Shown here: piece after piece, positions 6,379 to 32,000 of the stretch | How positions within the stretch are numbered: the stretch's first letter is position 1 | Layout of the letters: the number at the start of each line of letters is the position of its first letter | From: Candidatus Thorarchaeota archaeon | GTDB lineage: Archaea; Asgardarchaeota; Thorarchaeia; Thorarchaeales; Thorarchaeaceae | Length of the DNA stretch: 32,000 nt | Reading direction: 5' to 3' | NCBI GenBank assembly: GCA_003345555.1 | Contig: PRDJ01000039.1 | Location: 46,954 to 78,953, forward strand | Notes under the pieces: model-generated | The model's input: the letters and a program-made list of their open reading frames with translations, nothing else | Database searches by the model: none | Told to the model about the DNA's origin: nothing | Program-made: the position numbers and the translations under genes

Positions 6379-6588
6379 GTGTCGGGACAATACGGTCAGT
6401 CGCTAAAGGATCTACTTGAGCGAATGCATATTTCTGACTCAGAGAAGCTTGTTGCGGAAGGTGAGACCTTAGTGATAGACACGAAAGCAGAACGAATTCT
6501 CCTCTCGCGAAAGGATGGCGTTCTGTCAATCAGGTCTCTTCCTTCACCGGGATCCGGCAGTATTGCTGGAAAGGGTCACAACACTTAG
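6379..6588 (+). CDS. Small hypothetical protein
   Basis: 69-aa GTG-start ORF with globular-looking composition and a TATA-like ATATAAG at ~6301; no family recognised. Confidence 0.4.
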   Translation: MSGQYGQSLKDLLERMHISDSEKLVAEGETLVIDTKAERILLSRKDGVLSIRSLPSPGSGSIAGKGHNT

Positions 6589-6747
6589 TTGGCCGATTGT
6601 TAAGCCAAGTTGTCACCGAAAGTGTGACAATTCGAGAGGCCTTGGCCATCACAGTTGGAATTGGCTCTTCTTTGCCCTTCTTCGCTCTCCGGGAGGTTTC
6701 TGTGCCTGTTTGGGGTATTTATACTTACAGAGCCAGTATTGAGTGAG

Positions 6748-7114
6748 CCAAGCAGATTTGTCTTAGCGTGCTAGCCCAGATTCCGTTGGAGCTCGACAAT
6801 ATGGTTGAAACCCGTTCTGCCAAAGTGGGCCTCCATCAAGGGGACGAGACGGCATGCTTGGCTGGGCCCACAAGGGGGACCAAGACGTTGGCGATCGACA
6901 CCGCCGAAATCAACAGTTGCGTATCTATCTCGAAGGTTCTCCACATCACCTCTTCGAGGGATGGCGGACCTTGTTCGGTTTGTCCTGTGAAAGTGTCTCA
7001 TAGATAGCAACCTGAGAAAGCGGCCGTTTGGTATGGAACGGGTTTCAACCTAACCATTCTGCAGGTCCGGCAGGTCATAAACAACTCTGGTGGCAAGTCT
7101 CAGCCTGCTCTTGG
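6748..7114 (+). ncRNA. Candidate structured non-coding RNA (long rod with multibranched apex); a MITE-like element is the alternative
   Basis: Nested complementary segments: 6754-6762/7092-7100, 6776-6780/7086-7090, a perfect 15-bp pair 6803-6817/7036-7050, 6818-6824/7027-7033, 6825-6831/6865-6871, 6916-6928/7000-7011 (one bulge) and 6929-6935/6952-6958. G-U pairs work only on the + strand. TATA-like TATTTATA at 6716-6723, ~25 nt before the 5' stem. Confidence 0.5.
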
Positions 7115-7257
7115 ATCGTCATTGCTCGGTGCTCAGATAGGGGTAACCGCCTCATCGACCCGCCGTTCTCCACTTGTCTCGCGCTCACCTTATGAAACTG
7201 CCTTTTTCCGTCGCAATCTTCTTAGCGTGCCTAGACTGGTCCCTCACTGATGCAGCG

Positions 7258-8397
7258 TTGGTAAACACATCGCGAGTTCTTCATCTTGTCAAAGCCCTCG
7301 TAGCCGCGAACTCAGAGAATCCCCCAGGTCGAGAGGATCGGGCCGCCCAAGTCCTACGTGAACACGTGGAGGAACATAGTCTTTCCTGCACGACAATCGG
7401 TCCAGACGAGCGACCGAATCTGGTCGTTTCGACCGATCGTCTTGACGAGGCAGAGCTGGTGCTTCACGGTCATCTTGATACGGTCCCCGTAGGTCCGAGA
7501 GACTCATGGTCGCATGAACCATTTCAGTGTGAGCAGGTGGGTGACAGACTCTATGGGCGAGGAGCCTGTGACATGAAAGGGCCACTAGCAGCATTGGTTG
7601 AGACGATGATAACCTATGCTGACGAAAGGCACGCGAAGCCGCTGCTTATGCTAGCCACGACTGATGAAGAGAGCGGTTCTTCTGGTGCTGACCAAGTAGC
7701 TGCAAGCAAGATCCTAACCGGAGTTCGCTATGGCGTATGCGCGGAACCTACGTCGCTTGAGGTTCTGGTGGGCGAGAAAGGGATGCTATGGGTTCGCGTT
7801 ACTGCTGAAGGGAAGTCAGCCCATGGTTCTAGGCCTGAGGAGGGGATCAATGCCATTGAACTCTGCATAAACGCCGTCAAGATACTGACAAAGCGCCCCT
7901 ATCCGTTCGAGCGAGATTCACTCATGGGAAAGCCGACGATGAACGTAGGTGTCATAAACGGCGGCGTCAAAATCAATGTGGTACCCAATCGGTGTGAAGC
8001 ACTTATCGACATGAGACTAGTGAAAGGGCAGGGCATCGAGTCCACCCTTGAGCAAATGAAGAACAGGTTGAAAGAAGCTGGTCTATCTGAAAGAGTCAGG
8101 GTGGATTATGTCCACGGACTCCCCGCAGTAATCACTCCGATTGATGCAGAGATAGTGTCAGCAAGTCTTGAAGCTGTTGAGAAGGTGACGGGCCGAGCAC
8201 AGCGACCCCGTGCCGCAACGTTTGGCACGGACTGTTCTGTTCTGCAACCCAAGATAGGCATCCTGAATGTGATTTGCGGGGCAGGTTCAATTGAACAGGC
8301 GCATCAACCTGATGAGTACGTTTCTGTGGAGCAGTTGCTCTCTTCTGTTGATGTCTATCTCCATATAGCGAGGCACTTTGCTCGCGACATCTCTTGA
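7258..8397 (+). CDS. M20-family metallo-deacylase (ArgE/DapE-like)
   Basis: HGHLDTVP, GRGACDMKG, TTDEE, AEPT, GKSAHGS and AHQPDE motifs. The likely start is TTG 7258 (MVNTSRV); the track start at 7174 adds a non-homologous leader. Confidence 0.9.
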   Translation: MVNTSRVLHLVKALVAANSENPPGREDRAAQVLREHVEEHSLSCTTIGPDERPNLVVSTDRLDEAELVLHGHLDTVPVGPRDSWSHEPFQCEQVGDRLYGRGACDMKGPLAALVETMITYADERHAKPLLMLATTDEESGSSGADQVAASKILTGVRYGVCAEPTSLEVLVGEKGMLWVRVTAEGKSAHGSRPEEGINAIELCINAVKILTKRPYPFERDSLMGKPTMNVGVINGGVKINVVPNRCEALIDMRLVKGQGIESTLEQMKNRLKEAGLSERVRVDYVHGLPAVITPIDAEIVSASLEAVEKVTGRAQRPRAATFGTDCSVLQPKIGILNVICGAGSIEQAHQPDEYVSVEQLLSSVDVYLHIARHFARDIS

Positions 8398-13720: not shown

Positions 13721-14578
13721 CTACGCAGGCACCGGTTTGGCTTCACCCTTTCCTTCAAGGATGGCTTTCCGGATGATTTGAATGAGGCGGTCTCTATAGG
13801 AGATGTCTATCGCGACGAGCTCGTAAGTGGCGATTCCGAGAATCTGGCCCACTCTCTCAGGAGTCAGAGCAGTGGGCAGGTCTTGCTTGTTGGCGATGCC
13901 AATTACCTTGGCTTCAGGAACCTCCTCTTTGACCAGAGACACCAACTTCTTGCTACGCAAAACGTTCTCAAGGGTACTATCGGTCACAATGATGACAACT
14001 TGGGCATTCGCTATCATCTTGGCCCAGAGGATACTAAACCGCGATTGACCCGCAAGGTCCCAGAGTACTATGTTCGCATTTTGGACTTCGTCCGGGAGCT
14101 TCTTTATCGATACACCGATTGTAGGATCATGTACCAGTGGAAGTGTCTCTCCCCTGAGCAGATGCAGTGTGGTGGTCTTGCCAACGCCTGCGTATCCAAG
14201 AATCGCCACCTTCACCATTGTCACTGCTATCTCGTCGACCTTTGCATCAAGACCTTCCAAGGGGAGGTTCGCTTCTGCAAGGGTTGCGAAGTCCTTTATG
14301 AAGGCATCAACTAGCTGCGTCATCCGCTCCTCTATCTGAGCTGTGTCGTCGGCCTTGTCGGCCACAAACATGAATACGAAGTCGCGTCGAGCAGCATAGA
14401 ATATCCTTGTCCCTGAGAAACCCATGTACTCTGTCTTTCCCTCCAGGTCAACTGAGGAAATGAAATGAGCGAAATTCACTAGGAACTCAACCAGTCCCTC
14501 TCCTGATTCGCTCTTGGCGTATTCTTTGGAATATATGACATTGCTCTGTTGTCCAAGTATGTATAGGCTTCTAATCAT
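13721..14578 (-). CDS. Longin-domain::small GTPase (Arf/Rab-like) fusion
   Basis: N-terminal longin fold (MIRSLYILGQQSNVIYSKEY, as in sigma/mu adaptin N-termini); G1 GYAGVGKT, G2 PTIG, G3 WDLAGQ, G4 NKQD. ATG 14578 overlaps the upstream TGA (ATGA coupling). Confidence 0.9.
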   Translation of the reverse strand: MIRSLYILGQQSNVIYSKEYAKSESGEGLVEFLVNFAHFISSVDLEGKTEYMGFSGTRIFYAARRDFVFMFVADKADDTAQIEERMTQLVDAFIKDFATLAEANLPLEGLDAKVDEIAVTMVKVAILGYAGVGKTTTLHLLRGETLPLVHDPTIGVSIKKLPDEVQNANIVLWDLAGQSRFSILWAKMIANAQVVIIVTDSTLENVLRSKKLVSLVKEEVPEAKVIGIANKQDLPTALTPERVGQILGIATYELVAIDISYRDRLIQIIRKAILEGKGEAKPVPA

Positions 14579-23309: not shown

Positions 23310-23765
23310 GCGACTCCCTGATCAGCCTGCTGGTGAACTCAGAGGTCGTCGCCGGCAACTCACTTTCCGGCCCATTGGCTTGGATAGTCGTGCCATGTGC
23401 AAGTCTTTGATTCCAACACCTTAAGCTTATCAATAAAGAACGCAGATGAACGACCGTCTTGCCAAGCGCGTCGCGATATGGCTGACTGCACGACAATCGC
23501 GAAATCGCGTGCTCCAACGATTCTGCCGCACGGAGGGCTTTGGTGATTTGAATCCGAAGTCACGGTTCTGCAAGTGGTCAACCGCCGCATGTGTCGGATG
23601 GCCAAAAAAAGGAACGGCTTTGCGACCAAACGAATGGCTTTGTACGGAATTGCTTATTATGCGAAGCCAAACAACTGGGCGTCATTCCGAAGTGAGCCGG
23701 TCAGGCCGTCTGATAGCTATCCCGTATCCATCCATCGTAGGGAACGATGCTGGAGGTAGTGATTG

Positions 23766-26700
23766 ATGAAGAGAATTAGCACCTCTTTGATAGTCATGTT
23801 CGTGATGTTGCTCTTTACAGGTGTGGGTTTTGCGGGTACTCCCGTTGCACTAAGTTCTGGATCTCAGCCCAGTCTGGTTGACCAGAGTCTCGACGCGGCC
23901 GGGCAGGGTGCGTACACCGGCACCGGCGCAGCACGCACTGCCACACTGAAAGGCATGACAAGCAACGTGACTGGAGTTACGAATCTTGACTCCACCGGGA
24001 CAGCAACGACCAAGGTGCTCCGCCCGACGGGTTGGACAGGGACCAATCTGAGGACAGACATCAAAGGGCTGAGGGCATGGTACTACAACGTCCTTAGGAA
24101 CGGCAACTTCTCGACATACCACGATGAGATATACACCGAGCGGGGCGGCGAAGACCAGATTTCATTCCCTGATTATTGGCGCCTTCACAAGTACGATGCG
24201 CATGGAAGTCAGAACGCTACAAGCGGATACCTATATTTCTCCGTAGAGGGCACAGATCCAGATTATTACTGGCGCATGGTGATTGACGATTCTCCTCCCG
24301 ACGCAGGCGAATACCTGTCTCTCTCCCAAGAACTGAAGCTGCCATACATGGCAATCGAAGAGATGCAAATCACCGTCTCATTCAGACCTGATTACTGGGG
24401 AGGCACATACAATAACTCATTCATGTTCATCAAGGTAGGAACGTATCAGATCTCAGATTACTGTTTCAGGAGTACGGACACTTTTGGTGCGAGACTATTG
24501 AGGACATACACTGTACCGGGTTCATACTTGTCTTCTCTTACTTGTCCAACTGCTGTGAATTTCGAGATAGGACACAAAGTCAAAACTGGCGTGAGTAGCG
24601 GATGGTATGGAGCCATTCTTGACATCATGTATGTCACTGTGGATATCAAGGTAAGGCCGCTCCCTGACAGAATAAACATGAAAGCCAACTCAACCGCGAT
24701 ACTAGATGCAACAACTGGCAGCGGAGGTCCATACAAGGTACCTCTGGCTCAATACATCGCTGGGGTCTCGAGCCGAGATGGGTACAACATAGGCTCAAGC
24801 ACGTTCGATATAAATGGGTATTCAGATGATGGCCACCTTTTCGTCGGTTATGCTCCAAACTGGGGTGGTGTCGGCCGAATGGGTCTTCAGATGCAGGTTT
24901 ACGTCCCGAAGGGTGCCATCATTACGAGTGCAACCCTTACTCTTACTGGCGCAGACTACTCCGGGTCGCCCACCTATCCAGCTAGATTACTAGTTGACGT
25001 GGCAGATCGTTCCAATTCCGCCACATTCACACAGGGCGGGACCACAATCCTGTCACAATCGACTTGGATGAATAACCCCGTGGTTTGGCAATTCTCGAGT
25101 TTCAGTGGCGGGACGAAGTACACTTCACCAGACATCTCAGCTCTACTTCAAAGAGTTGTATCGAACAGCACATGGGCCAGTGGTAACTATGTCGTCCTGA
25201 TGGTGTCTGGAGCGTATTTCGGCGGCGAGACGGTGGACGCCGGTCTTAACTTCTATGGTACTGCGGCCGGAGTGGATGCGAATGTTGGATATCTCACCAT
25301 GACCTGGCTTGTTCCGTCAAGCACGACAGAGCAGACCAAGTATACGAGCACGGGCTCTTGGTCAAGCACCAGCTCCGTATCATTGAGCTTTCAGTCAAAC
25401 GCAACCGACGTTTCGTTCAGCTCGAACATGTACTTGAACGCCTCTATCATTGTAATCTCTCTAGACAACAATCTAAATCCCGGCACAACATTCAGTGTGG
25501 CCAACAACACTGTCATGACTTGGACAGCCAATGTACTGGTATCACCGCCGGTGGGTGTGGGCTACACTAACATCTCTTTGAGCAAACCGGCAACTTCTTG
25601 GACCCTCTCAAGTGTTACCGATGCTGATGGTTCTACTCGAACGTCAGAAGTTACTATAACCTCAAATGCGGTGCAAGTCAAATCATCGGTGGTTGATGTA
25701 TTTGGAATATGGAAGTTCGTTTTCACGGCCGACCAGCAGTTAGCCAGCCCGTATCTGCAATGTGGAATCAATGGTGGTAGCTACGCCAACACCTACACAT
25801 ACTATGTGGGGAACTCGGCCTCTTTCATCAGTTGGGCTCCATATTTGTCCACCAATGCAGAGCGTCTTTTGCTTACTGCCCCCAGCGGTCAGCTTTTCTA
25901 TGCCGTAGACGATCTTACGCAATCAGTTAACAGTCCATACCCCTTTGAATGGACTGGAATCACTGTCACGAGTGCATGGCCGGCCGGGGTCTGGTACGCT
26001 GATGTGAACTTCAACAACACCAAAGGTGCCGTTCCTTCGGTTGTGGGTAGAGCAACGCGCAGTTTCACGGTCATACATGCGACGAGCCTGAGTCTAATAT
26101 CGCCTGCCACTCAAATTACGAGTAGGATTGCAGGTAACTTGCTCTACGTTCAGGTAAAACTCACCGACACAGACAACTCGGCTCTCGTAAGCGGTGCAAC
26201 TGTTACTATGAACTGGACGAGTCCGAGCACTGTGACTCTTGACGACTGTGGCAACGGTTACTACGAGAAGACATTGAACACTACTGACTTGGGCACTGCC
26301 AAGAGATGGAGAATTGATCTGTCCGCCTCCAAATCATACTACTCTGGTTCGTTAACTTACTTCAATTTGGACTTGACCCATTCAACGTTCTTGACCTATC
26401 AGACTCCAGCATCCGCACCCTACGGAGACGACTTCAGGGTCAAGGTGACGCTCTACAACGCTTTCACCAAGACGACAGTACCCGGCGCTACTATCACATC
26501 CAACGGCACCTTCTTTGGCTCGCCCACAGATCACGGTAACGGCAGTTACACGGTCACATTCGAGACTTCCGGCCTAGGTGTGGGTGACTATCTGTATCGG
26601 ATTATTGCGACTCCAGCCAGCGCGTATATTCTGGCAAGCAATGTGACCATCAGGTTCACCCTGCGCAATGTCTACACTACCACGTACGGCGTGGGCGGCA

Positions 26701-29700
26701 GTTCGGTCTCAACACCTTACTCGATAAGCACATCCAAGATAATAACGTATAACGATACTGACCACGCGTTTGCAGGAATAGCCGGAGCATCGAATTCGGT
26801 TCAGAGCCCGACCGGCGTCATAACTACCGTGTCTGATTCTGGTGGAGGCAAGTACACAGTAAGCATCAATGTTGGTACCAAGACTGTCGGAACGTACTTG
26901 ATCAACATCACGCTGTCCAAGTCGAATTACTACAGCAGCACAATTCGGATCTCTCTGACTATTACGGCGCGTATCACGAGCGTTGTCTGCAAATATACTA
27001 ACATTGTTCCCTACGGGTCCAACTCCCCGTTCACTGTTACTTGGTATGACATTGACGGCGGAGGAGCAAACATCTCAGGTGTAGTGGCCATAAGCAGCAT
27101 CACTGTCAATGGTACGTCCTATGGAAGCAATCCTAGTTTTGCATACGTTTGTAGTAGCCTCTCTGTGCGGAGCTATGTACTGAACGTTACTGTAAACTCC
27201 GGCAATACCGGTTACAAGAGCTCATGGCAGATTGTGACTCTCACGGTCCGAAGCTTGGGCATCTATATCTACAATGAACCCAGTGATCTTGTGTTTCCAA
27301 GCGGTGACGATTTCGTCATTGTCATTCGCGTCAACATTAGCGAACCGGGCAATCAGTTCAACAAGCAGCCGATAAGCAACCTTACTGCTGCTCAGTTCAC
27401 AATCTCGAACTCTACGTACACGTTCCCCAAGACGATTACAGCGCTCGGAAACGGTAGGTACAACCTTACGATAAGTCACACCTATCTGAACATGAATGCA
27501 TACACAATCACCATACTTCTGACTCCAAGTAATTCGAGATTCGCTAGCGCGTCTGTGCAGATATCATTCAGCTACAGGGCGGCCAGAAGCTACCTTTCAT
27601 CACCAAACTATCCTTACATTATCACACCATACGGGACATCGGTCGTAGTCACACTCAACTTCACCGATGTGGACCGCAACAAGGGTATCACAACAGCTGA
27701 CATCACTGCTACGGGCATCTCGATATACGGAAAGACGAACGTCGGCAATGGCATCTATAGAGTGACGCTCAATGTCACTGGTTTAGCTAAGGGAGATCAT
27801 CAGTTCAACCTGAAAGCAACTGCATCACAATATCAGTCGCAGAATCTAACGTTCACTCTAACGGTCAGGATTGTCTTCACGTCTGTTATTCCAACGGTTG
27901 GTTCTCTTGACATACCCGTCGGCAACAGCCCCGTCTTCTATGTGAGGTTCTGGGACCAAGACAATAACCTGCCCATAGCGGGCGCCACAATGACCAGCAC
28001 TTGGATTAGGAGCTTGACAGTTACATACATACCAGCAGATCAAAGATACAGCGTTACTTTCGCAACTCTCGACACGGACATACTGAGATCCAACTATGTA
28101 GTAACCTTCAACTTCTCGAAGGGTGTCAACTATCAGCTCGGTATCTTCAATGTCACGATTACTATTCGAACTCACAATACTGACTTTCGACTTGTGAGCG
28201 CCGTACAACCATCATCCTATAACGGTATCATCAACGTATCAGTGTACTACGGTGACCTCGATAACAATGCAGGAATAAGGTCAAGTTATGTCCATCACAA
28301 AGTGATCAACTCAACGGGTTCTGTAAGCTCAACTTTGTACAATGATACGGTCTTAGGAGCTGGCTTCTACATAATCAGGATTCCAGCGTCTCAGTTTGCC
28401 GGTCTAGGTCTTCGGACTTTCACAATCTACTTCAACTGGACAGGTTCTGTCTACAAGTACCTCAATAAGACCTTGTCGACAAGCGTCAATCTTGTAGGTA
28501 CTGATTCCAAATATACGTTGCTTGTGGCAGCCGAGCCGACAGCATATCTCAACAACATGAGCTACATGTTCCTCTATGCTCAACTCAGCGGTATCGGCAT
28601 TGACAACAGTTCCGGCAACGTTCATATCAGGGTCGCATTCCAAGGTGAATCCGTAGACCTGTCGAGAGTCAAGATTTGGTGGGTGGCGGGCGGGAACTAC
28701 TCTATCCGCTTCAACACAACGGTGTTCACTCATACCGGTCTCATATACATGACTGTATACGTCAACTGGACCAAGGGTGCGGTGCCGTTCTACACAAACC
28801 GCACCGATGTGATTTCTGTTCGCATTCTCCCGCGAGACACACTTGTGTCCGTCATCCCACCATCGCCCACATCATGGGGCCAGAACGCAACGTTCACGTT
28901 TGCTTATGAGGATGTAACTGGAGGCGGCAGTGTACCCATCCCCTACAACGTTAAGATGACAATCAAGCTGAGCCTATCTAGCTACACACTCACCTACAGC
29001 AGCGCGACCAAGTTATTCACGGTGTCGTTCAATTGCAGTCAATCTCCGATAGGTCTCGCGCCTCTTGGTTCGAAATCCTTCATACTGAATGTCACCTGGG
29101 CTGGGTCGCCGTTTTACAACAACCGGACAGGTCAGTCGATCAGCATAACGGTGCTTGCTCGGCAGACGGTCTTGGACTATCAGACTCCTGCCCCGACATC
29201 GTATTCCGACAATGTAACATTCGTCGTGAGTTGGTTTGACGTAACTACTGGTTCTTCTGTGGGAATCAATGGAGCAACAGTAACGCTCTATGATGGTGCG
29301 GTTCCAGTGTCCGCGAGCAAGTACAAGGTCACGCCGCTCGGAGGAGGCAGCTACTCCATTCAGCTGAACACGACCTACAAGTCGTCTCCTGGTACCTACG
29401 CTTTGAAGGTGATCCTCGACAAGTCTCTGTTCTACCTTCCGGCTGCCAACTCCACAAGGCAGTTCAGCATCATCTGGCGCATAACGCTTCTTTCATCAGA
29501 ACCTGTTGATCAAGTACCCTACAACTCGTCGATCCAGGTCAGAATCCACTATCAAGACTTGCTGAGATTGACCTCAATCGGGAATGGTTCAGGCTACACT
29601 TCAATCAAGATACTCAACGGGACAAGTTGGCTGTTCACGAGTTCTTGGCAATCCGCGTTTGACTACTACCTTCTTACGATTCAAACCTACAATCAAGCCG

Positions 29701-32000
29701 GGCTCAAGCTTGGAACCGTATACACTCTACATCTCAACATGACCTACGCGAGTCTATCTCCATTCTATCGTTGGGATGATGCTTACATAACATTCCAGCT
29801 GCGCCCGCGGACAACAAGCCTCAGTGCCTCCTCGCCGTCTTCTACACCGTATCTCGACTATGCCAACTTCACTGTCACCTACTTGGACACAGATGCTGGT
29901 GGGAAAGGAATCGGGTCTGCTACCATTTCAATAAAGAAGAACGGCACACTTCTGACACCCGGTTCACAGTACTTGGCTGTTCAGACTTTGCCTGGTGTGT
30001 GGGCCATCTCGGTGAACTCCACAGCCCTGAATGCCCTGACCACGACTAGGATTGATGTCTATGCGACCTGGTTCGGAACGCCGTACTACGCCAACAACTC
30101 AAGGTCTGTTGACATCACGGTCATTCGGAGACCGACGGCAGTTGATGTTGTGACGCCGCCATCGCTCACGCGGTATCTCGACAATGTCACATTTACAATC
30201 GGTTTCTCGGACGTCGAAAGAGGCAGCTACATCGGTAGCATAATCAACAACATCCTCATTTACAATGGTACGAAATACCTCACTTCGAGTCAGTATAAGG
30301 TGGTAACGGGTTCTGTTGCAGGCACCTTTGACATAAGGATTAACTCGACGATTCTGAGTGCTCACTTACTTACCAACTATCAGATAACAGTGAAAGTGTA
30401 CTGGCTCAACATACCGTACTACGCAAATGCAACAATCTCTGTGCGCTTAACAACTACGAACAGAGCTGGGGCGCTTACTTGGGACCAGATTGATAACACT
30501 CCCATGGGTGACCTCCTGAACCTGACGTTCTACTACAAGGATCTCGATACAGGTCTAGGAATAGCAAACGCAATTGTTCAGTTCGACTGTGTCCAGAAAC
30601 CGGGTCTACAAGTGGGGATTGACTATACGCTCGTGAAAGGGACTGGCGTAGATACCGGTACATACTACATCCGCGTCAACACAAACAGGCTCCTTGGGAT
30701 TAGGAGCTACAACTTCCTATTGACTGTACTATGGAACGCAGCAAATGCTCCTTTCTACACTAATCAAACTACTAGGAACATCGGCGGCGCAGTCAGAGCG
30801 ATTTCAGCTTCGCTCACACCCGGGACTCCGACGCCTCTTCTTGTACCCTACTACGGCAACGTGTCGGTCGATGTTACATATTATGACAATGATCACTTGC
30901 GTGCAATCACCAACGTTGTCAAGACCAATGTGACTGTAACATACGGGTCCGGCAGTGGACCGATAGCTTGGGGGTTCGCAAACCTAGGCGGTGGTGTGTA
31001 CAGGATCACTGTAAACACTTCCGACTCGGGACCCTACGGCTCGAAGACACTGCAAATAGCTTTCAACCGGTACCCGTACACTGCACAACTGACGAGTGTT
31101 CCGTTTACCACCCGATTGAGGAATATGCAGGCGGCCGCTACTGTTCCTACTGACCTCTATGCGGGCGATCCTTCGTACGTGACTGTCAATATCAGCGACA
31201 GTGATTCTGTCAAGCAGTTGGCAGGTGTAACGCTGGTCATCACATGGGAATCGACTTCGTCTTGGATTTATATCGGTTCGGGGCTGTACAACGTATCTTT
31301 CGGCACGACCGGAATCCCGGCAGGTTCTGCGACAATGGAAATACAAGCGACCAAAGCCAACTATACTACCCAGCTGCTGATTCTTAGCATTTACCTCAAG
31401 CCCATACCGATAGAAGTTGTAGTCCCGCCCGCGATTGATGGCATGTCAGTGTATTGGAACAAGAAATTTGTGATTTACGTCTTCATCAACGACACCTTCC
31501 ACGACATGCTGGTGTCGGGAGCCACAGTAACCTATGTGTTTGGAGGTCACTCTGGGAGCCTGACGGAGACTTCAAGTGGTAACTACAGCGCGACCCTTGA
31601 TACTTTCTGGGTGTCTCCAGGAACTGAGGTCATTTCAATTCAAGCAACGAAGAACAACTATGCTATCGCCGGTACCCTCATTCCGGTGAACGTTGAGAGA
31701 ATCCCCACAACCCTGACAACACCCATCTACTCGTCAAGCCAGCACCGAGGTTCTCCTTGGAACATTAGTGTGTACTTCAACGACACGTACAACAATCAAC
31801 CGGTCACTGGCGCGACAGTGACAATATCATGGTTCTACCTAACCTCCGAAAGTGGTACCATGACCTCTCTCGGCGGGGGGTGGTACACCTTCAACCTTCC
31901 GACGGAGAACGCTTCAATTGGACAGAACTATGTGATTAATGTGAACGCCATCAAGACGAACTACCAGACTTCTTACACTTCACTATACCTTTCGGTCTCA
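23766..32000 (+). CDS. Giant secreted cell-surface protein with tandem Ig-like beta-sandwich repeats (3'-truncated, >=2745 aa)
   Basis: SD GGAGGT at 23752-23757; signal peptide MKRISTSLIVMFVMLLFTGVGFAG. The frame is still in register at the window end (...SLYLSVS) and the track lists no stop-terminated ORF in this frame. Thr/Ser/Tyr/Asn-rich with many N-x-S/T sequons; recurring ~100-aa unit containing (D/N)xG(N/G)GxY. Confidence 0.9.
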   Translation, partial: MKRISTSLIVMFVMLLFTGVGFAGTPVALSSGSQPSLVDQSLDAAGQGAYTGTGAARTATLKGMTSNVTGVTNLDSTGTATTKVLRPTGWTGTNLRTDIKGLRAWYYNVLRNGNFSTYHDEIYTERGGEDQISFPDYWRLHKYDAHGSQNATSGYLYFSVEGTDPDYYWRMVIDDSPPDAGEYLSLSQELKLPYMAIEEMQITVSFRPDYWGGTYNNSFMFIKVGTYQISDYCFRSTDTFGARLLRTYTVPGSYLSSLTCPTAVNFEIGHKVKTGVSSGWYGAILDIMYVTVDIKVRPLPDRINMKANSTAILDATTGSGGPYKVPLAQYIAGVSSRDGYNIGSSTFDINGYSDDGHLFVGYAPNWGGVGRMGLQMQVYVPKGAIITSATLTLTGADYSGSPTYPARLLVDVADRSNSATFTQGGTTILSQSTWMNNPVVWQFSSFSGGTKYTSPDISALLQRVVSNSTWASGNYVVLMVSGAYFGGETVDAGLNFYGTAAGVDANVGYLTMTWLVPSSTTEQTKYTSTGSWSSTSSVSLSFQSNATDVSFSSNMYLNASIIVISLDNNLNPGTTFSVANNTVMTWTANVLVSPPVGVGYTNISLSKPATSWTLSSVTDADGSTRTSEVTITSNAVQVKSSVVDVFGIWKFVFTADQQLASPYLQCGINGGSYANTYTYYVGNSASFISWAPYLSTNAERLLLTAPSGQLFYAVDDLTQSVNSPYPFEWTGITVTSAWPAGVWYADVNFNNTKGAVPSVVGRATRSFTVIHATSLSLISPATQITSRIAGNLLYVQVKLTDTDNSALVSGATVTMNWTSPSTVTLDDCGNGYYEKTLNTTDLGTAKRWRIDLSASKSYYSGSLTYFNLDLTHSTFLTYQTPASAPYGDDFRVKVTLYNAFTKTTVPGATITSNGTFFGSPTDHGNGSYTVTFETSGLGVGDYLYRIIATPASAYILASNVTIRFTLRNVYTTTYGVGGSSVSTPYSISTSKIITYNDTDHAFAGIAGASNSVQSPTGVITTVSDSGGGKYTVSINVGTKTVGTYLINITLSKSNYYSSTIRISLTITARITSVVCKYTNIVPYGSNSPFTVTWYDIDGGGANISGVVAISSITVNGTSYGSNPSFAYVCSSLSVRSYVLNVTVNSGNTGYKSSWQIVTLTVRSLGIYIYNEPSDLVFPSGDDFVIVIRVNISEPGNQFNKQPISNLTAAQFTISNSTYTFPKTITALGNGRYNLTISHTYLNMNAYTITILLTPSNSRFASASVQISFSYRAARSYLSSPNYPYIITPYGTSVVVTLNFTDVDRNKGITTADITATGISIYGKTNVGNGIYRVTLNVTGLAKGDHQFNLKATASQYQSQNLTFTLTVRIVFTSVIPTVGSLDIPVGNSPVFYVRFWDQDNNLPIAGATMTSTWIRSLTVTYIPADQRYSVTFATLDTDILRSNYVVTFNFSKGVNYQLGIFNVTITIRTHNTDFRLVSAVQPSSYNGIINVSVYYGDLDNNAGIRSSYVHHKVINSTGSVSSTLYNDTVLGAGFYIIRIPASQFAGLGLRTFTIYFNWTGSVYKYLNKTLSTSVNLVGTDSKYTLLVAAEPTAYLNNMSYMFLYAQLSGIGIDNSSGNVHIRVAFQGESVDLSRVKIWWVAGGNYSIRFNTTVFTHTGLIYMTVYVNWTKGAVPFYTNRTDVISVRILPRDTLVSVIPPSPTSWGQNATFTFAYEDVTGGGSVPIPYNVKMTIKLSLSSYTLTYSSATKLFTVSFNCSQSPIGLAPLGSKSFILNVTWAGSPFYNNRTGQSISITVLARQTVLDYQTPAPTSYSDNVTFVVSWFDVTTGSSVGINGATVTLYDGAVPVSASKYKVTPLGGGSYSIQLNTTYKSSPGTYALKVILDKSLFYLPAANSTRQFSIIWRITLLSSEPVDQVPYNSSIQVRIHYQDLLRLTSIGNGSGYTSIKILNGTSWLFTSSWQSAFDYYLLTIQTYNQAGLKLGTVYTLHLNMTYASLSPFYRWDDAYITFQLRPRTTSLSASSPSSTPYLDYANFTVTYLDTDAGGKGIGSATISIKKNGTLLTPGSQYLAVQTLPGVWAISVNSTALNALTTTRIDVYATWFGTPYYANNSRSVDITVIRRPTAVDVVTPPSLTRYLDNVTFTIGFSDVERGSYIGSIINNILIYNGTKYLTSSQYKVVTGSVAGTFDIRINSTILSAHLLTNYQITVKVYWLNIPYYANATISVRLTTTNRAGALTWDQIDNTPMGDLLNLTFYYKDLDTGLGIANAIVQFDCVQKPGLQVGIDYTLVKGTGVDTGTYYIRVNTNRLLGIRSYNFLLTVLWNAANAPFYTNQTTRNIGGAVRAISASLTPGTPTPLLVPYYGNVSVDVTYYDNDHLRAITNVVKTNVTVTYGSGSGPIAWGFANLGGGVYRITVNTSDSGPYGSKTLQIAFNRYPYTAQLTSVPFTTRLRNMQAAATVPTDLYAGDPSYVTVNISDSDSVKQLAGVTLVITWESTSSWIYIGSGLYNVSFGTTGIPAGSATMEIQATKANYTTQLLILSIYLKPIPIEVVVPPAIDGMSVYWNKKFVIYVFINDTFHDMLVSGATVTYVFGGHSGSLTETSSGNYSATLDTFWVSPGTEVISIQATKNNYAIAGTLIPVNVERIPTTLTTPIYSSSQHRGSPWNISVYFNDTYNNQPVTGATVTISWFYLTSESGTMTSLGGGWYTFNLPTENASIGQNYVINVNAIKTNYQTSYTSLYLSVS

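Follow-up and report, generated by a model that had tools for sequence, protein, structure and literature searches.

A segment of some 370 nt in a Thorarchaeota genome (2.28 Mb, 93% complete) lies between a DapA-Fae fusion gene (end 6281) and an M20 peptidase gene, at positions 6748 to 7114 of the window, the 32,000-nt stretch of DNA analyzed here. Is it a free-standing structured RNA, a mobile DNA element, or something else? The original prediction, made from this one sequence, was a non-coding RNA with its own promoter, novel or a highly diverged housekeeping RNA, with a MITE carrying 15-bp terminal inverted repeats as the alternative. Our analysis indicates that the element is probably the stand-alone transcript of a small gene specific to Thorarchaeota, whose 3′ end folds back onto its start region, and that the form found in the window's genus is a locked, non-coding descendant. 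A genome-wide search, as the original prediction had proposed, found one copy. Elsewhere in the window, positions 23500 to 32000 hold few long ORFs (ATG, GTG or TTG starts) over 8 kb and have no Rfam or tRNA match.

In relatives the unit has a constant layout: a TATA box ~88 nt upstream of the AUG, a conserved ~55-nt leader ending in GGAG, an ORF of 53–78 codons starting MAET, a 10-nt 3′ segment complementary to codons 1–4, and a U-tract. TATA-like boxes are present in most orthologous loci at −79 to −97 (mostly −85 to −92), and the 3′ arm usually lies at a distance of 220–245 nt. In the window, the TATA-like box noted ~25 nt before the first paired base is indeed there: TATTTATA, at 6716–6723 on the plus strand, has five exact copies in the genome and lies 85 nt upstream of an AUG at 6801. 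The pyrimidine-rich 5′ leader (6748–6800, its start placed at TATA + ~25 nt) ends in the UCCGYYGGAG motif that is conserved in the alignment. Its Shine-Dalgarno (SD) site, GGAG at 6788–6791, is part of a hairpin (6778–6793) that has 6 bp in the consensus of four genus members and only 3 bp in the family consensus. The perfect 15-bp helix 6803–6817/7036–7050, which we confirm as originally drawn, begins at this AUG: its 5′ arm runs from the last base of the AUG to codon 5–6, and its 3′ arm lies at +240. Because the TATA box at −85, the SD site at 6788, the AUG at 6801 and the 3′ arm at +240 coincide with the family landmarks, this helix corresponds to the start-codon/3′-arm helix of the relatives; the SD site and AUG had been overlooked. 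The window element is an orthologue of the small-protein mRNA, and the part conserved across loci is the promoter, leader and start-codon helix, the multiloop excluded. Only one other locus genome-wide has perfect 15-mer inverted repeats less than 400 nt apart: a palindromic 15-mer present three times at 14253–14830 of contig C32.

The small gene encodes a protein of 53–78 aa and is found as a single copy in 65 of 85 family genomes and in none of the four of the window's genus. Pairs of coding relatives differ mostly by synonymous changes (synonymous/non-synonymous 13/8, 15/10, 8/4 and 15/14), a pattern that shows the aligned ORFs of other genera to be under selection at the protein level. A search of 1.84 billion representative proteins gave 17 strong matches, of which 16 are small proteins and the other is long and repetitive. 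One short homologue, P0010, considered as a circle, turned out to be an ordinary contig end. Pfam, NCBIfam and PADLOC contain no matching family, the single sub-threshold Pfam match being to Paratox in one member. The protein is globular and mildly basic and lacks a membrane segment (its best 19-residue hydropathy has a median of 0.18), and its predicted model (pLDDT 86) has a soluble beta-alpha-beta-beta-beta topology. Foldseek returned nothing under E 0.08 for this model; the best VIA match was to KH-type domains (Z 4.5), atlas TM scores were at most 0.6, and a feature search gave 0.87 to DUF7092, none of which assigns a fold. In several genera, in or out of frame, the coding orthologues carry a G-rich GACGGGGA-like motif ~170–190 nt past the AUG (alignment columns 345–395), which could pair with leader CAUCCC. 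Comparison of 13 leaders with 16S helix 45 and helix 6, 23S, SRP and RNase P RNA, for complements or mimics, gave a single match of 11 nt, in one genome, with an uncorrected p of 0.013; all else was at chance level. Upstream of the element, an unannotated, conserved 69-aa gene (6379–6588, plus strand) follows the DapA-Fae pair as a single copy. It aligns with the locked small gene end to end (hhalign 63%, E 7e-5), may be a distant paralogue of it, and is present both in the window's genus and in genus g12, neither of which has the locked small gene.

Is the helix maintained as RNA? Given 44 aligned rows that had not been fitted to it, RNAalifold recovers the helix de novo. In the alignment 97.3% of cells are paired and 5 of 10 pairs show two-sided change; none of 500 shuffles equaled this, and slid registers were 21–52% paired. 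At the silent third position of codon 3 the pair is A-U in 31 loci, G-C in 20, G-U in 1 and A-C in 0, with 8 changes on each side on a tree built without the helix columns in question. Codons 2 and 4 are also fixed at their third positions (53/56 and 50/56), which are free to vary elsewhere. A strict independent-contrast test left four well-supported pairs, all concordant (p 0.125). Two controls gave the same picture: a comparable helix occurs in 42 of 60 loci but in only 3 of the 1,223 other genes examined in the genome, and among matches to the leader pattern it accompanies none of 57 chance bacterial matches versus 21 of 23 archaeal ones. The wobbles expected to work on the plus strand alone are borne out across loci, where the helix core has 26 G-U against 4 A-C combinations; the helix thus belongs to the plus strand. 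As judged by these substitution patterns, the helix is shown to be under selection as RNA. In computed folds its pair probability exceeds 0.5 in 55 of 56 loci, and the unpaired probability of positions +1 to +15 drops from 0.37 without the arm to 0.15 with it. The SD site of the four genus members is no more occluded in the full-length fold.

This pattern bears directly on the MITE alternative, to which we assign a practically negligible probability. A perfect 15-bp inverted repeat would suit such a DNA element, but it is perfect in the window's genome alone. The locus is single copy, without dispersed copies or target duplication, it occupies the same syntenic site throughout the family, and its covariation is biased to G-U wobbles on one strand.

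The structure originally drawn around the helix fared less well. The folding signal comes entirely from the long helix: 6801–7052 has a z-score of −4.4 and the inside alone −1.1. The shuffle test proposed for the whole of 6748–7114 gives −1.9 on the plus and −2.5 on the minus strand, only slightly better than shuffles. Helix 6818–6824/7027–7033 is marginal, with a pair probability of about 0.5 (7027–7032 side). Pairing is feasible for the two outer helices of the rod (−8.9 and −6.9 kcal/mol), but no MFE fold contains the outermost, and its 3′ strand (7092–7114) is the antisense of a C/D sRNA gene on the minus strand. Since the outer helices pair the leader with this antisense, read-through would be needed to form them. 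The three-arm multiloop lies 7 kcal/mol above the MFE; of its arms 6888–6907 is well supported (probability 0.98), 6825–6871 reaches only 0.40 and 6916–7011 only 0.02. The proposed GNRA loop at 6985–6992 is a misreading: GUGA is followed by AA where AG had been given, and the loop does not form. The interior (6825–7011) is variable, ~86 nt of it being absent from genus member G003, and hairpin 6888–6907 is its only confidently predicted part; an inner multiloop is not supported, given a z-score of about −1 and a lack of conservation.

Could the segment still be a free-standing ~370-nt non-coding RNA built around a functional multiloop, or a diverged housekeeping RNA? Its own promoter and strong helix would fit, as would the similarity of arm 6825–6871 in G003. 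The reported absence of an RNase P, SRP or other known RNA consensus also holds, as an Rfam scan found no family at gathering score. With E up to 10, no RNase P, self-cleaving ribozyme, group I/II intron or riboswitch matched within 6748–7090, and neither RF00373 (RNase P RNA) nor RF01857 (SRP RNA, helix 8) matched the element; a search of the element for tRNA or tmRNA was likewise negative. Both housekeeping RNAs were located elsewhere. The true RNase P RNA lies on contig C57 (144.6 bits), and in the same-genus genome G003 the SRP RNA and the element copy are on different contigs (a search of the window's own assembly found no SRP gene). Furthermore, the orthologues are small-protein genes whose product is under selection, the interior z-score is about −1 with folds that differ in G003, G001 and G002, and the last ~23 nt of 6748–7114 belong to the opposite-strand gene. 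We consider this reading very improbable. What survives of it is a plus-strand RNA that has its own promoter and a long-range helix, but not its proposed nature and bounds.

The description as non-coding, which fails for the coding relatives, does hold for the window's genus. A protein-profile search matched none of its four members. Three have frames of 68, 42 and 54 codons, and the fourth (G002) has an ACG start and a frame shift. Pairs within the genus show no synonymous excess (synonymous/non-synonymous 2/12 for the window versus G003, and 3/9). The 68-codon frame of the window (6801–7007) resembles the family CDS no more than shuffles do, in either DNA- or protein-profile comparison; it would be a decayed or replaced orthologue and probably encodes no selected protein. 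A resemblance of the interior to the family CDS in another frame, seen by eye, was no better than shuffles. G001 and G002 fold otherwise than the window. All four members retain the TATA box, the SD hairpin and a 15–16-bp helix, longer than that of coding relatives and with fresh compensatory changes. Judged from these four members, which fall into two pairs, the comparison shows that the ORF was lost and the helix retained; a search for further genus members returned one near-copy of G002 and six chance matches.

Continued selection on promoter, SD hairpin and helix points to a role at the RNA level, carried by the leader and stem and not by the interior. Such a function would be the most economical reason for keeping the unit in the genus. 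The leader and stem might serve as a binding platform or decoy for a factor that normally controls the mRNA, an idea we hold at somewhat less than even confidence. The RNA could instead be a functionless relic, its lock kept only to silence a junk frame and its promoter only for read-through transcription. The unconstrained interior, the absence of the U-tract (found after the arm in most relatives) from all four members, and RNA contigs in X1 (a sister species) and X2 that continue through the sRNA gene agree with a relic. Silencing would be achieved more simply by losing the SD site or promoter, yet both are retained in both species pairs, and a helix lengthened relative to coding relatives with new compensatory changes is not what a relic predicts. 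A relic is unlikely, in our estimation, but deserves weight.

Elsewhere in the family the parts also come separately. Three genera with the ORF (g5, partly, g15 and g16) have a weak helix or none, and searches of g10, g12 and g14 did not find any of the unit; the unit is thus not essential. Since two genera have ORF and leader without the helix and the window's genus has the helix without the ORF, leader, ORF and lock are separable modules.

RNA from the locus is present in four metatranscriptome assemblies from three studies, available as contigs only; the runs were selected because they contain this sequence. Contigs that match the window exactly or almost exactly span 6775–7020 in X1 and 6812–7023 in X3 and X5, so that 6775–7023 is represented in RNA libraries. 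Contig depth over the element is 312 (X1), 94 (X3) and 2.3 (X5), and flanking genes have 2–9 (2–7 for exact-match pieces in X1 and X3); these depths are unfit to rank expression and give a hint of abundance at most.

Two of the four runs, X3 and X5, from two studies, contain a back-junction from 7023 to 6812 of the type expected of a circle, another feature that had been suggested for checking, and the X3 contig is exactly 212+30 nt, a closed loop. The other two lack the junction: X2 is linear through 7023, and the X1 contig ends at 7020. The apparent 212-nt circle (6812–7023) has a junction that slides by 5 nt on a direct repeat, CCGTT at 6812–6816 and 7024–7028, at the inner edge of the helix. 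Short repeats at the base of a hairpin give reproducible false junctions by reverse transcriptase (PMC2923612), and G003 and G002 have not retained the repeat. The back-junction is probably such an artefact; a false junction at the helix edge would in turn be consistent with stalling of the enzyme by the helix. The alternative, compatible with our main reading, is that a precursor is cut near the inner helix edge and ligated into a true 212-nt circle as mature product. In its favor are the same junction in two studies, the closed loop in X3, recovery in X5 at a depth of 2.3, the stop of the X1 contig at 7020, and reports that archaea also form RNA circles independently of BHB, omegaRNA circles among them (PMC12558985). 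Besides the repeat, the absence of the junction from X1 and X2 and the lack of conservation of the interior, the geometry argues against it: the 5′ end of the junction (6812–6817) lies outside the 3′ end (7023–7028) on the stem, a stagger opposite to that of a BHB intron cut by EndA, and the stem has only one 2-nt bulge. A search of JGI metagenome contigs did not find the junction pattern, which is weak evidence against a DNA circle. We regard a true RNA circle as unlikely. A broader version, which we consider rather improbable, is an Asgard dual-function RNA that is essential as RNA: an abundant transcript defined by leader and start-codon stem would be processed at the stem, independently of BHB, into a covalently closed ~210-nt circle without SD or AUG, converting an mRNA into a non-coding circle, and one genus would have given up the protein entirely.

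The convergent sRNA gene, also missed originally, occupies 7091–7163 on the minus strand. A DNA search of 61 genomes gave matches mainly at 7090–7160, in 25 of 36 family genomes. All Rfam C/D matches are weak, the best being snoR38, below all Rfam thresholds. We could assign a C box (7158–7152), D′ guide (7150–7137), D′ box (7136–7133), C′ box (7122–7116), D guide (7115–7104) and D box (7103–7100). Both guides match the 23S rRNA of the window's genome in the peptidyl-transferase region, with 9 and 8 contiguous pairs. By its four boxes and agreement with the +5 rule this is a separate gene for an ordinary dual-guide C/D sRNA, with methylation predicted at positions that we take to be the equivalents of E. 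coli 23S G2446 (D′ guide; yeast Gm2815) and C2510. Three relatives (L017, L020, L026) have a tandem or alternative sRNA copy whose D guide matches the A-loop region (23S ~2682 of the hit). At the equivalent of E. coli A2448 (~2577 of the hit), all three Thorarchaeota genomes read have G in the 23S, in agreement with the guide; guides of genus g5 carry the A-matching version although the 23S of G022 has G. The 16S genes of two genomes contain insertions that look like small rRNA introns by their sequence: ~29 nt, self-complementary, just before the anti-SD at the 3′ end in G003 (~3020–3060 of L090), and ~90 nt in the helix 45 loop in G022. Downstream, the listed TTG start (7174) of the M20 peptidase gene (7174–8397) overlaps the sRNA promoter region, and its true start is probably further downstream. 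An 11-nt direct repeat, 6761–6771 and 7220–7230, has its only two exact genomic copies here, the second overlapping a promoter-like motif that is conserved upstream of the M20 gene in many relatives.

How might the unit work where it is coding? It consists of TATA box, ~55-nt leader, SD, AUG, short ORF and 3′ arm, with a U-tract added in most relatives, and pairing of the 3′ arm with codons 1–4 would bury the start region. The helix may block initiation on the finished mRNA, so that protein would be made only on the nascent transcript or once trimming or displacement has removed the 3′ arm; paired ends could also stabilize the RNA. A 5′–3′ long-distance interaction is likewise a property of type I toxin mRNAs such as hok and AapA1 of Helicobacter pylori. 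The locus might accordingly be a type I toxin-antitoxin-like system, with a toxic small protein silenced by fold-back and a dead toxin gene in the window's genus. A start region sequestered in cis by 5′–3′ pairing is found here by both comparison and computation, and together with the small ORF and the SD hairpin it belongs to the annotation hallmarks of these systems (PMC8594479). There is also a convergent small RNA whose 3′ end could pair with the 3′ arm; covariation between the two was looked for by eye and not seen. This RNA is the only antisense candidate near the mRNA, but it is a normal guide accounted for by its rRNA targets, persists in genomes that lack the element, and has no overlap with the leader. 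The protein, moreover, is not a hydrophobic membrane peptide, it has no match in the defense and domain collections named above, and its gene is single copy at a site fixed across the family. A toxin is therefore improbable, and we favor the small gene whose start is locked by its own 3′ end.

In our search of the literature, whose coverage was incomplete, we found nothing on the locus or on such a lock in archaea, and comparisons are thus with more distant systems. Like the type I toxin mRNAs with 5′–3′ pairing (T1TAdb, PMC8594479), the element is a short stand-alone mRNA with a small ORF, an SD hairpin and a 3′ end that pairs with the start region. It differs in being archaeal, in pairing over codons 1–4 and not over the SD, in encoding a soluble protein from a single fixed copy with no leader antisense found, and in a lock that outlives the ORF. 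Dual-function RNAs (SR1 and SR7 of Bacillus subtilis; Methanosarcina mazei spRNA/asRNA pairs, 10.1101/2025.10.28.685009), are also small transcripts that encode a small protein and may act as RNA. They have no sequence relation to the element, of which one genus has shed the coding part and for which the RNA role is putative. Archaeal circular RNAs (PMC12558985) share the back-junction in RNA-seq assemblies beside a long closing stem, but the element lacks the geometry of BHB/EndA circles and has its junction on a 5-nt repeat. The minus-strand gene alone compares with archaeal dual-guide C/D sRNAs and eukaryotic snR38/SNORD1, with the same boxes and a D′ guide at the G2446 equivalent; unlike snR38/SNORD1, it has a second guide that targets the C2510 equivalent in the same RNA. 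Post-transcriptional control is almost undescribed in Asgard archaea, and the element offers a family-wide, covariation-supported 3′-end lock on a start codon together with a new family of small proteins for which no fold match is known. An mRNA that lost its protein and kept its promoter and structure would be a natural experiment, showing a non-coding RNA in the course of its origin from a coding one. The element is real and previously undescribed, a variation on a known regulatory design in a lineage without a reported case, and its transition from coding to non-coding is unusual.
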